The notes below the pieces were generated by a model that saw only the letters and a program-made list of their open reading frames with translations, did not search any database and was not told the DNA's origin. From a phage: a stretch of DNA of 64,000 nt. A program made the position numbers and the translations under genes. The stretch lies in sequence record OR896157.1, one strand, 5' to 3'. Below, one piece after another: positions 45,635 through 47,811 of the stretch. How positions within the stretch are numbered: the stretch's first letter is position 1; the number at the start of each line of letters is the position of its first letter.

Positions 45635-45654
45635 GGGACTCCCGAAGGAGTCCC
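45635..45654 (-). terminator. GGGACUCC-UUCG-GGAGUCCC hairpin
   Basis: Perfect 8-bp stem with UUCG loop on the minus transcript. Confidence 0.5.
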
Positions 45655-45665
45655 GAACTTATGCT

Positions 45666-45845
45666 TTATGCTTTCTTACGTGGATTACCAAATGCAGCAT
45701 CATGAGCAATAACTTTGCGAGCGCGAGATGCTAGCTGGTCAGCCAATGGATTAATACGAGAGTTAGACCCACGCTTGTAGCCAGCGCGTTTAGAGGTACC
45801 AACAACTTCTTTTACTGCAGTTTTTGCTTTAGCTTGTTTAGCCAT
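45666..45845 (-). CDS. small highly basic protein (30.9-like position)
   Basis: 59 aa from internal ATG: MAKQAKAKTAVKEVVGTSKRAGYKRGSNSRINPLADQLASRARKVIAHDAAFGNPRKKA. Confidence 0.5.
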   Translation of the reverse strand: MAKQAKAKTAVKEVVGTSKRAGYKRGSNSRINPLADQLASRARKVIAHDAAFGNPRKKA

Positions 45846-46162
45846 TTTTAGTCTTCCATTTTGGAGAAATACATGGGAGCACGTTCTTCCGAGTTTCAAC
45901 TTCTTTCGACAGTTCTTTCGGTTGTAGCTCCCGCAAGCCCTCAAAGGGTACTTTGTGAGTTTTGTATATTTAACGTTCCGGTTCTCACAACCTTAACTTC
46001 ATACGCTCTTATCTGTTGCACACCGTTAGCTTAAAGGTTCCGGGTCCGATTTCTCGAGGATAAGATATACACTGATGGATGCATAGGCCTTGAGGCGTAC
46101 TCCCGATTGGCCATCACCTCGGGGTAGCATGCACTTGCCGCGTAACTTGCCTTACAGCAACA

Positions 46163-46417
46163 TTACTTCAGAGTCACTACGAAATGACGAACCGCTTTAC
46201 GAGCTGCTGAACACAGAGGTTTAGCAAACTTCAGCTCATCTTTCAGAGCAAGTACATCGCGGAGGTCTGCCTGAACAGGATTCAGATGTTTGAAACCTTT
46301 CAGAACTTCCAGTGCTTCGGCGTAAACGTCGATTGATGCACCGTAGTTATCGTGACCTGCGTTCCAGGAGTTGCGCTGCAGATGCAGAGCGTGTTCAAGT
46401 TGTTTGTTCATTGACAT
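46163..46417 (-). CDS. rIII: rIII lysis-inhibition accessory protein
   Basis: 84 aa from internal ATG with GAGGAA Shine-Dalgarno; position next to gene 31 and size as in T4 (82 aa). Confidence 0.8.
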   Translation of the reverse strand: MSMNKQLEHALHLQRNSWNAGHDNYGASIDVYAEALEVLKGFKHLNPVQADLRDVLALKDELKFAKPLCSAARKAVRHFVVTLK

Positions 46418-46534
46418 TATGTCATTCCTCAATACGAGGTTAATAAAAGGTAGACGGTACCAGAATTTAAGCTGCGCGTCTACCACCTTGTAATTTCTCC
46501 GGTTAACTTTTGTCCGGCAGCCAAATTACAATAA

Positions 46535-46542
46535 TATTTATA
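46535..46542 (-). promoter_or_regulatory. late promoter box TATAAATA (minus strand) downstream of gene 31, upstream of rIII
   Basis: Reverse complement of tatttata immediately after gene 31 stop. Confidence 0.45.
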
Positions 46543-46866
46543 TCACCCGTAGATGCACGGAATTGACTTCCAATGACAAGTAACAAATTTCTGTGCAATT
46601 TCTTTTGGTTTTTTCATACCAGCAGCGACAAGCGGATGAGGTACATTACGAATCTGACCAGTTGGCAGCGGCACTAACATACCGACTTCGAAAATACCTT
46701 CAGGAACATCCGCGCCGATTGAATAGATTTCACACATATCAGGGATTTGTCCGGTTTCTTGTTTGCCGATAACAATACCGCCAGAAGAAACGATTTCATC
46801 ACCTTGCTGAGGAGGTTCAGAAACCAAGATAACATGTTCGCCGATAGCTTTAATTGGTAAATCCAT
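46543..46866 (-). CDS. 31: co-chaperonin gp31 (GroES analogue)
   Basis: [16 protein letters not shown]...GQIRNVPHP...[14 protein letters not shown] closely matches T4 gp31; start is either this ATG or one 24 nt upstream (46890). Confidence 0.88.
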
Positions 46867-46922
46867 TGTTACACCTTGTTGTTTGAGCATGAAATAATAT
46901 TATCATGCTCATATTTAAGCAA

Positions 46923-47252
46923 TTAACCTTTAACCTGAACCAGTTTCAGCAGATGCTCTACTTTAACACCATTTACTGAAACGATAGAATCTAGTTTGAA
47001 TGAACGCCATGCGTGTTTTTCAGTGTCCCACACTGGAATAGCTTCAGTAGATTCTTTACGAGACACCTGAGAGCCAACGCTTTCAACCAAGTCGCTTGGA
47101 ATGATGTCATGGTCACGAGTACAACGCAGAGAACGGATAGTACCGTCTACTTTCTCAAATACTACTTGAGATTCGCCACGAGCCAGAATTGGTTTCAGAG
47201 TATCACGAATTTGTACTTTTTCAGCTTCAGTCAGTTTAGTTTTCTTAGTCAT
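46923..47252 (-). CDS. hypothetical protein (31.1-like position)
   Basis: 109 aa from internal ATG; start overlaps cd stop by 8 nt. Confidence 0.5.
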   Translation of the reverse strand: MTKKTKLTEAEKVQIRDTLKPILARGESQVVFEKVDGTIRSLRCTRDHDIIPSDLVESVGSQVSRKESTEAIPVWDTEKHAWRSFKLDSIVSVNGVKVEHLLKLVQVKG

Positions 47253-47811
47253 TTTCAACACCACAGTAGTTTTCAACATTATACCAATTGAGTTTATTCA
47301 AGTTCGTCTTAGGAACATGATGAATCTCAATACCAGCATCGCGGAGGATGTTATCCCAACCGTCGGCATTTTTATCGTATGTTTCACAATATACGAGTTT
47401 CTTAATTCCAGATTGAGCAATAGCTTTGGCGCAGTCTGGGCATGGTGAAAGTGTAACGTACATCGTAGCGCCTTCAATTGAAGAACCATTACGTGCTGCG
47501 AACAGAATAGCATTCAATTCAGCATGTATTTCGTTAATTTTCGACCACTTAGAATGTTCAGCTCGGAATTTAGTGTCTAATCCATATTTTGGAATTGGTC
47601 CATCTTGACGAAGACCACTTCCAGGTTTCTTAACTAACCACCCTTTATCTTCGGCATGGTCACAGCAGTTAACTCCACCGGCAGGAGAACCATTATAGCC
47701 GGTAGAAATGATACGACCATTTTTCTCAATAACTGCACCGACTTTCCAGGAGCAGCATTTCGATTCTTGGGAAATCAGATAAGCGATTTGTAAGACGGTG
47801 CTAGCTTTCAT
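47245..47811 (-). CDS. cd: dCMP deaminase
   Basis: 188 aa; zinc-binding deaminase motifs HAE and PCxxC (SPCPDCAKAI); TAATG overlap upstream. Confidence 0.93.
   Translation of the reverse strand: MKASTVLQIAYLISQESKCCSWKVGAVIEKNGRIISTGYNGSPAGGVNCCDHAEDKGWLVKKPGSGLRQDGPIPKYGLDTKFRAEHSKWSKINEIHAELNAILFAARNGSSIEGATMYVTLSPCPDCAKAIAQSGIKKLVYCETYDKNADGWDNILRDAGIEIHHVPKTNLNKLNWYNVENYCGVEND

Follow-up and report, generated by a model that had tools for sequence, protein, structure and literature searches.

The rIII-30.9 intergenic region

The window, by which we mean the whole 64,000-nucleotide stretch of phage DNA that was analysed (OR896157.1), is in this region that of a T4-type, Karamvirus-like myovirus, and is ~98% identical here to Enterobacter phages of the PG7 group. 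All of the local genes are on the minus strand (Table 1). Positions 45846-46162 are an intergenic gap that runs from the rIII stop codon (46163-46165, minus) to the gene 30.9 ATG at 45845, so the limits given to the gap in a preliminary description of this DNA are right. The same description held that the gap is richer in GC than its surroundings and poor in ORFs, and it is both: its GC content is 46.4% compared with a window mean of 40.2% (just 3.8% of 317-nt windows are equally GC-rich), and no ORF of at least 60 aa lies within it. The single long ORF that touches the gap, a 92-aa minus-strand frame at 45666-45944, is the 30.9 frame extended to an upstream TTG. The 143-nt core discussed below has a GC content of 51.7%, in the top 0.7% of windows of its size.

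The late-promoter box upstream of rIII is the sole minus-strand copy of TATAAATA within several kb, and such boxes are enriched in the window (14 observed and 3.6 expected). A scan for sigma-70-type sites found no promoter-like site within the gap. Judged by its match and position, the box is likely the start of a late transcript that would carry rIII, the RNA described below and 30.9.

Table 1. Features of the rIII-30.9 region, listed 5' to 3' along the minus strand
Feature	Position	Strand	Evidence and remarks
cd	47245-47811	minus	
Gene 31	46543-46890	minus	
T4-type late-promoter box TATAAATA, upstream of rIII	46535-46542	minus	Exact consensus; putative promoter
rIII, lysis-inhibition accessory protein (upstream flank)	46163-46417	minus	phrog_1457, E = 7.6e-41; rIII annotation in relatives
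Linker UGUUGCUGUAAGGCAAGU, directly 3' of the rIII stop, lineage-specific	46145-46162	minus	Kept in closest relatives only (alignments)
Core structured RNA, 143 nt, seven helices, perfect four-way junction	46002-46144	minus	Model R1, 178 bits, E = 1.5e-37; 44 pairs
H1, closing helix	46140-46144 with 46002-46006	minus	
Arm H2-H3, with conserved internal loop AAGNGCAU opposite CUNANG	46086-46139	minus	Loop nucleotides invariant or nearly so
H2, GGC/GCC	46137-46139 with 46086-46088	minus	Invariant, hence unproven
H3, holds CCCGA/TCGGG	46116-46128 with 46095-46111	minus	8/10 pairs compensatory, plus a 3-pair tip
H4, hairpin, 7 bp, 6-nt loop	46079-46085 with 46066-46072 (span 46066-46085)	minus	4/7 pairs compensatory
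Arm H5/H6/H7	46007-46065	minus	H7 loop GGAMCC..GCUAAC and joining strand GCAACR invariant
H5, opens into three-way junction	46059-46065 with 46007-46013	minus	5/7 pairs compensatory
H6, loop mostly GAAA, loop not conserved	46054-46057 with 46046-46049	minus	4/4 pairs compensatory
H7, invariant loop	46041-46045 with 46020-46025	minus	2/5 pairs compensatory; other 3/5 invariant, hence unproven
Module S, hairpin UUGUGAG...CUCACAA, conserved loop ACGUUAAAUAUACAAAAC	45953-45990	minus	Alignments; single copy in window
Module h, GUACCCUUUGAGGGCUUG, small hairpin, conserved flanks	45934-45951	minus	One copy in window; in 23 fetched loci
Module B, three-tier hairpin with GGGAGC/GCUCCC as its closing stem, immediately 5' of the 30.9 ribosome-binding site	45876-45930	minus	17 pairs, 3 compensatory
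U-rich spacer and ribosome-binding region (..UCUCCAAAAUGGAAGACUAAAA) of gene 30.9	45846-45875	minus	GGAAGA..AUG context kept in alignment; annotated RBS in Moon and Merlin
gp30.9 homologue, 59-aa basic protein (downstream flank)	45666-45845	minus	phrog_1427, E = 4.1e-29; T4 gp30.9-like annotation in phages CC31 and Muldoon
Intrinsic terminator 3' of 30.9, GGGACUCC-UUCG-GGAGUCCC then U6	45635-45654	minus	Terminator scan; annotated terminator in phage Merlin

Fold of the core RNA

Helices H1, H2, H4 and H5 of the core abut with no unpaired nucleotides between them, and the four-way junction is therefore perfect. About 50 of the unpaired nucleotides of the core are invariant and the stems vary; the invariant nucleotides fall into two clusters, one in the internal loop between H2 and H3 and the other in the H5/H6/H7 junction and the H7 loop. 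Folded by itself, the window sequence gives a centroid structure of the same architecture. In single-sequence calculations the folding energies of the gap (z = -0.58) and of the core (z = -0.35) are no better than those of shuffled sequences, on either strand, and so the support for the structure is comparative and not thermodynamic. Inspection by eye of the diverged members Cronus, EcL8g, K41P2 and L075 supported none of the candidate pseudoknots between the invariant loops (GGCC/GGCC, GAGG/CCUC and AAG/CUU).

The comparative support was obtained as follows: homologues were collected from GenBank phages, IMG/VR and metagenomes, with the invariant stretch CCNGGANCC...GCUAACNGUGNGCAAC of the H5/H6/H7 arm as the search pattern, giving 32 distinct sequences and later 38 when diverged forms were included. 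RNAalifold finds 44 pairs in seven helices among the 32 sequences, 27 of them compensatory. In the MAFFT alignment of these, 98.6% of the pair cells are canonical and 27 pairs are compensatory, compared with 26-42% and 2-7 when the partners are slid by 1-3 columns. None of 500 shuffles matches the observed pairing values, and although shuffle statistics overstate the independence of related sequences, the slid-partner control, which retains their relatedness, is equally clear. With all 38 sequences the canonical cells are 98.8% (25-43% when slid), 29 of the 44 pairs are compensatory, and the compensatory cells number 155 compared with 3-24 when slid. Compensatory pairs thus lie far above the controls, on one strand, as is generally asked of a conserved structured RNA. 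The suggestion in the preliminary description that the gap might be a structured RNA, to be checked by covariation across related phages, is borne out by this conserved fold, in which 29/44 pairs covary on the gene-sense strand. The CCCGA/TCGGG stem that it pointed out near 46100-46125 is real and is part of helix H3, with compensatory change in relatives.

The strand is given by the wobble pairs. Our own tally of the pair table for the 38 sequences has 84 G-U cells; for example, H4 has a conserved U-G wobble (46079/46072) in 31 of the 38 sequences that would be an A-C mismatch if read on the plus strand, and H6 shows a C-G / U-G / U-A series whose G-U members would likewise be A-C mismatches there. 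The RNA is therefore read from the minus strand, co-directionally with the genes.

The core is also better conserved than its neighbours. Phages Moon, KR8 and PYPS2T share with the window a DNA identity of 92.5-94.6% in the core, 72-83% in rIII, 77-82% in 30.9 and 68-71% in gp31, and the core differences sit mainly in stems, where they are compensated. Taken together, these measurements demonstrate the fold of the core, its minus-strand sense and its purifying selection. The high core identity across genera might in part reflect recent recombinational spread and not selection alone.

Other RNA modules of the gap

The remainder of the gap is also built of hairpins. Module S is found in phages that have no core, including T4, and by eye its stem covaries (GCAAG/CUUGU in MHG19 and GGUUUAUGG/CCAAAAACC in T4). 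Module h adjoins the core at both of the genomic sites where the core occurs (below), either upstream or downstream of it, and persists where the core is absent. The GGGAGC/GCTCCC stem noticed earlier (45876-45881 with 45925-45930) proved to be genuine: it closes the module B hairpin and shows compensatory change in relatives. The interior of module B is homologous to a hairpin in the rIII 5'UTR of T4-type phages, and window positions 45880-45927 match, by blastn, the T4 gap between gene 31 and rIII.

Writing C for the core, X, Y and Z for lineage-specific stretches and t for a terminator-like hairpin, the module order is C-S-h-B in the window, X-C-h-B in KR8, Y-S-h-t in T4, Y-C-S-h-t in PYPS2T, h-C-S in L075 and EcL8g, h-S in Pet-CM3-4 and C-h-Z in K41P2. 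From 1 to ~130 nt, with differing modules, separate the core from 30.9. The island is non-coding, a minus-strand chain of the hairpin modules S, h and B around one large selected domain.

Distribution of the core and a second genomic site

Blastn matches the gap in 800 phage records and its central core (135-175 nt) in 408, of which 344 are at 95-99% identity; the hosts of the matching phages include Klebsiella, Escherichia, Enterobacter, Shigella, Yersinia, Citrobacter, Salmonella, Serratia and Erwinia. In Tevenvirinae carriers the core always follows rIII, and in IMG/VR it is present in 18 of 43 rIII loci, always 4-140 nt past the rIII stop, with no weaker copy found in the remaining scanned rIII loci. 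It lies upstream of 30.9 in >95% of its occurrences, including every Tevenvirinae carrier. A cis-regulatory role would also explain this >95% figure.

The alignments show the core to be a sharp presence/absence unit within a gap that is a mosaic of modules. T4 lacks exactly the core and its relative PYPS2T has it, and Pet-CM3-4 and CC31 lack it although their rIII genes are 98-100% identical to that of the window; the boundaries are sharp when T4 is compared with PYPS2T, Pet-CM3-4 with L075 and PMBT1 with K41P2. Core remnants are present in CT01 and MHG19, and since these are truncated cores, loss by deletion is indicated. No core copy was found in the first 50 kb of T4, whose tRNA and rIII regions were also scanned. 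Model R1 finds a single core in the 64-kb window, and the motifs h, S, m1 and core are nowhere repeated in it, each being single-copy or absent.

In 20 records a diverged core (108-126 bits with model R1, with many compensatory changes) occupies the gap between uvsY.-2 and the convergent uvsW.1; the carriers include the Slopekvirus K41P2, the Pseudotevenvirus GAP161 and the Yersinia phage JC221; most Slopekviruses have no core. Neither a conserved ORF nor an annotated gene lies between this second-site core and the bidirectional terminator (the longest K41P2 ORF is broken in PMBT1). A late-promoter-like box, CATAAATA or AGTAAATA, is found 2-4 nt upstream of H1 at this site in three distinct versions that match at 6-7 of the 8 positions; we take it as a lead and not as a finding, and the second-site core might perhaps be transcribed from such a late-type promoter of its own. 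The sequence of H1 differs by lineage while closing the same domain, and the small modules m1 and h are common to both intergenic regions, so that shared RNA modules make up both the rIII-30.9 and the uvsY-uvsW gap. No linked partner gene is evident, the neighbours being the same in carriers and non-carriers. The core is dispensable and independent of any one neighbouring gene.

Comparison with databases and the literature

No part of the window has a gathering-level match among the 4227 models of Rfam 15 (riboswitches, ribozymes, group I/II introns, tmRNA, 6S, RNase P and sRNAs among them), and at E<=10 neither the window region nor seven diverse members are matched at the RNA, so the Rfam scan that had been recommended ties the gap RNA to no known family. 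An intron, which had been suggested as well, is not supported: the ORFs on either side are intact, and neither group I/II nor other Rfam models match. ARAGORN finds no tRNA or tmRNA in the window, and a tRNA-like identity was rejected by eye (the four-way junction has no unpaired linkers, and T-loop and D-loop motifs are absent). A hairpin ribozyme was set aside for lack of an Rfam match and because, by eye, the loops AAGNGCAU/CUNANG and GCAACR/GGAMCC..GCUAAC are unlike the loop A/B consensus, in which loop A has the cleavage site N|GUC opposite AGAA. Homology to T4 rnaC/rnaD was likewise dismissed: model R1, run with its filters off on T4 69.5-73.5 kb, matches neither, and its best score there is 6.9 bits, on the wrong strand and in the wrong place.

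Blastn against 5,426 E. coli genomes and the PLSDB plasmids did not find the core. Of two motif scans over 185,579 bacterial and archaeal species genomes, one gave 0 matches and the other 2, both due to chance and failing model R1. On these negatives a host-derived mimic was rejected, and the core occurs in phages only. Full-text searches of the literature open without subscription, made also with exact sequence strings, found no description of the core RNA, and it is not mentioned in the T4 rIII/S1 paper or in the papers on PeSL cassettes.

Possible roles of the core RNA

The observations above make it almost certain that the core is a real, new and selected structured RNA, and it is probably a new functional one, but what might it do? 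Our best explanation, for which we judge the chances to be even, is a self-contained accessory structured RNA, co-transcribed with rIII and 30.9, that has a putative pocket. It would be made within the late (and read-through) rIII - RNA - 30.9 transcript; its four-way junction would bring the two invariant loop regions together to form a specific pocket, which may bind a protein or a small ligand or may be catalytic; and the folded domain would act as an accessory RNA in its own right, not as the regulator of one particular gene. We infer the pocket and a trans-acting mode from architecture and context, and the corresponding mechanism, an autonomous, trans-acting binding module, could as easily be wrong as right. 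A role in phage-host conflict or in RNA metabolism would seem likeliest. More speculative, and less likely than not, is that the core represents a class of RNA that is new and peculiar to lytic T4-type phages, either catalytic or sensing a ligand or protein, and carried as an accessory "RNA moron" that is exchanged between genera by recombination; it might be, for example, a new self-cleaving ribozyme, or a decoy or sponge against a host defence or RNA-metabolism factor.

Several other explanations were weighed against the self-contained accessory RNA. Were the core a cis-acting leader or riboswitch, it would be the sensor in the 30.9 5'UTR and would control 30.9 translation or read-through by way of hairpins h and B, and its aptamer-like build (a multi-helix junction closed by P1, whose junction nucleotides are invariant and whose stems vary), its place upstream of 30.9 in every Tevenvirinae carrier and the hairpin B and U-rich tract directly before the 30.9 RBS all agree with this. 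We nevertheless think it unlikely: at the second site no conserved ORF or annotated gene comes between the core and the terminator and convergent gene, the distance (1 to ~130 nt) and the modules between core and 30.9 vary, module h is sometimes upstream of the core, T4, CC31 and Pet-CM3-4 retain h, S and 30.9 with no core, and no Rfam riboswitch matches. The absence of a following gene at the second site and the variable spacing and modules before 30.9 also led us to reject classification as a riboswitch. A self-cleaving ribozyme of a new class, which would cut the mRNA between rIII and 30.9 or trim the 3' end at the uvsY site, seems to us about as improbable. Phage intergenic DNA often contains small ribozymes, and in its natural form the hairpin ribozyme is built around a perfect four-way junction, two neighbouring arms of which carry conserved loops; the core has such a junction and such loops, and its invariant unpaired nucleotides would fit an active site, but the hairpin, hammerhead, twister, twister-sister, pistol, hatchet, HDV and glmS models are unmatched at E<=10 in eight members, the hairpin-ribozyme loop A/B consensus is unmatched by eye, and no cleavage site is indicated in silico. 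Hairpin-chain regions are known sites of T4 mRNA processing, and the core might instead be a stability or processing element with no function of its own, a 3'-UTR structure that shields the rIII or uvsY-operon message or directs RNase E/G processing. That the core lies directly 3' of the last upstream gene's stop at both sites, and that the whole gap is a hairpin chain, fits such an element; simple hairpins would suffice for protection, however, which leaves ~50 invariant unpaired nucleotides and the four-way junction over, and the core is better conserved than the genes it supposedly protects while close relatives manage with none. We therefore hold this explanation also to be rather unlikely.

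The two remaining explanations deny the RNA a role. A selfish or neutral recombination cassette, mobile non-coding DNA that would spread by recombination, comparable to the promoter/stem-loop cassettes of T4-type phages, and whose RNA fold is incidental, would account for the sharp presence/absence boundaries, the two genomic sites with common modules m1 and h and the near-identity across genera. The mobile-element remnant that had been proposed is not supported as stated (there are no conserved termini and only one copy in the window), yet the core does behave as a presence/absence module. The cassette is very improbable in light of the 29 compensatory pairs and the G-U series, which signify selection on one-strand RNA pairing, the H1 ends that differ between lineages and so provide no conserved termini, the one copy in the window, the lack of a sigma-70-type promoter-like site in the gap and the lack of an annotated endonuclease or transposase gene beside the core in any examined record. 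Finally, a protein-coding role for either the plus-strand 53/57-aa ORF (45861/45873-46034) or the sense 34-aa ORF that begins in an invariant GCAUG (AUG 46130) is scarcely credible. The ORFs exist, the 53-aa one as the preliminary description had it, and in some GenBank records this DNA carries antisense "hypothetical protein" annotations. That the 53-aa ORF is a real gene is refuted: among homologues the open frame over the same DNA turns up in each of the three frames, at lengths of 25 to 102 codons (in phage Moon it has 29 codons though the core is 94% identical to that of the window). The sense ORF has 34 codons in the window, 11 in K41P2 and 7 in Muldoon. Neither Pfam nor PHROG matches any ORF of the gap, the substitutions track base-pairing and not codon positions, and inspection of relatives for a conserved protein-coding ORF at the gap found none.

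Relationship to known systems

In >400 genomes of well-studied T4-type phages the core RNA is either unannotated or mis-annotated as antisense "hypothetical proteins", which its recognition corrects, and some of the carriers infect clinically important hosts (Klebsiella, Enterobacter and Yersinia). As a 143-nt four-way junction with ~50 invariant unpaired nucleotides it is as elaborate as riboswitch aptamers and small ribozymes, and its presence or absence among near-identical phages provides natural isogenic pairs. Were it truly to work as a ribozyme, to sense a ligand or to act as an anti-defence decoy, it would be an RNA-based accessory function in a phage group that is thought to be largely catalogued.

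Orphan phage RNAs such as GOLLD and ROOL, and other RNA motifs known from comparative genomics, are alike with the core in having been found by covariation in non-coding phage DNA, in their complex folds and invariant loops, in not being tied to one downstream gene and in having no known function. The core differs from them in being far smaller (143 nt), in its lack of any sequence or structure match in Rfam 15, and in having been found only in T4-type phages that are strictly lytic and have Enterobacterales-type hosts (Escherichia, Klebsiella, Yersinia, Serratia, Erwinia and relatives), never in the bacterial genomes scanned. With the hairpin ribozyme the core has in common a perfect four-way junction and two adjacent arms with conserved loops that could dock; this likeness is architectural only. 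One arm of the core ends in a three-way junction, and the Rfam hairpin model is not matched. Riboswitch aptamers have, like the core, a variable closing P1, invariant junction and loop nucleotides, covarying stems and usually a 5'UTR position, here that of 30.9, but the core has a second site with no downstream gene and no consistent expression platform, it matches no known class, and the same gene is expressed in close relatives that have no core. T4 rnaC and rnaD (the species 1 and 2 RNAs) resemble the core as small, stable, non-tRNA RNAs of T-even phages that have no known function; they sit in the tRNA cluster, however, and are not homologous to it.

The PeSL cassettes (Arbiol et al. 2010, PMC2839356; Comeau et al. 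2014, PMC4122927) are, like the core, short non-coding modules tied to indels and module shuffling between close T4-type phages. A PeSL is a sigma-70-type early promoter fused to a simple stem-loop and is present in many copies per genome (PMC4122927). The core, in contrast, was rejected as a PeSL cassette since there is no sigma-70-type promoter-like site in the gap and it is present as a single copy in 64 kb, 143 nt long, with a selected seven-helix fold.

Structured RNA at the uvsY-uvsW site

The diverged (type-2) form of the core RNA, which lies between uvsY.-2 and the convergent uvsW.1 in phages K41P2, GAP161 and JC221, has a T4 late-promoter-like box 2-4 nt upstream of its closing helix H1 that reads CATAAATA in K41P2 and JC221 and AGTAAATA in GAP161 (the late-promoter consensus used for comparison was TATAAATA). 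The location of this box just upstream of H1 suggests that the type-2 RNA at this site may be transcribed late as a unit of its own, with a putative start at the base of H1. The uvsY.-2 to uvsW.1 stretch of Yersinia phage JC221 is unusually long, ~830 nt, and only doubtful short ORFs are annotated in it. It holds the type-2 core, the small modules m1 and h (below) and more conserved-looking hairpins, and possibly constitutes a larger locus of non-coding RNA. 'Hypothetical protein' CDSs lie over or antisense to the structured RNA in the GenBank records of JC221, KR8 and further phages; these are probably spurious gene calls, because their reading frames are not conserved.

Coordinates of features in the window and in fetched loci of relatives (L numbers)
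Feature	Location	Strand	Detail
Module B	window 45876-45930	minus	closing stem GGGAGC/GCUCCC
Module B counterpart, T4	L001 1486-1556	minus	rIII 5'UTR; closing stem GGUAGUC/GACUACC
Module h	window 45934-45951		GUACCC-loop-GGGCUUG
Module S	window 45953-45990		loop ACGUUAAAUAUMCAAAA
Small modules, JC221	L103 1055-1110		
Small modules, T4	L001 973-1216		h, S and m1 all present
rIII 5'UTR	window 46418-46534	minus	hairpin GGUAGACG...CGUCUACC
Late box	window 46535-46542	minus	upstream of rIII
Late-promoter-like boxes, type-2 cores	L012 679-700; L103 870-900; L091 1187-1200		
uvsY.-2 to uvsW.1, JC221	L103 600-1434		
Degenerate core, CT01	L013 536-679		
Core remnant, MHG19	L008 728-760		ACCUUUAAGCAAAGGUU
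CDS, KR8	L003 1222-1365		BCGALACO_00106
CDS, JC221	L103 802-978		JC221_170

Loss and carriage of the core

Shigella phage CT01 has a degenerate core of which only the 3' half is present (69 bits with the covariance model of the core), and Yersinia phage MHG19 retains a remnant of ~25 nt; these indicate that the core has been lost repeatedly, by internal deletion. Among Klebsiella phages 162 records match the 901-nt rIII-region query versus 161 that match the core, while among Escherichia phages the core is matched by only 130 records versus 278-406 for either the rIII region or the gap as a whole. These are record totals per query from separate record sets, not paired records, and on this basis the presence of the core may follow the genus of the phage or its host.

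Hairpin modules near the core

Many T4-type phages have small conserved hairpins (h, S and m1) in their rIII-30.9 gap, and in JC221 and K41P2 such modules recur between uvsY and uvsW as well; their order is shuffled. The stem of m1 (GGUGAUUCGCUACCUUAGUGCGGCUAGAAAAU) covaries (CGC/GCG, CAC/GUG, UGC/GCA).

In the window's own rIII 5'UTR, downstream of the late box, a different hairpin occupies the place where T4 has module B. Module B of the window, upstream of 30.9, is homologous to the three-tier hairpin in the rIII 5'UTR of T4-type phages; the closing stems differ between the window and T4, and the inner stems covary. Module B is a shared hairpin of 5'UTRs that precedes different genes.
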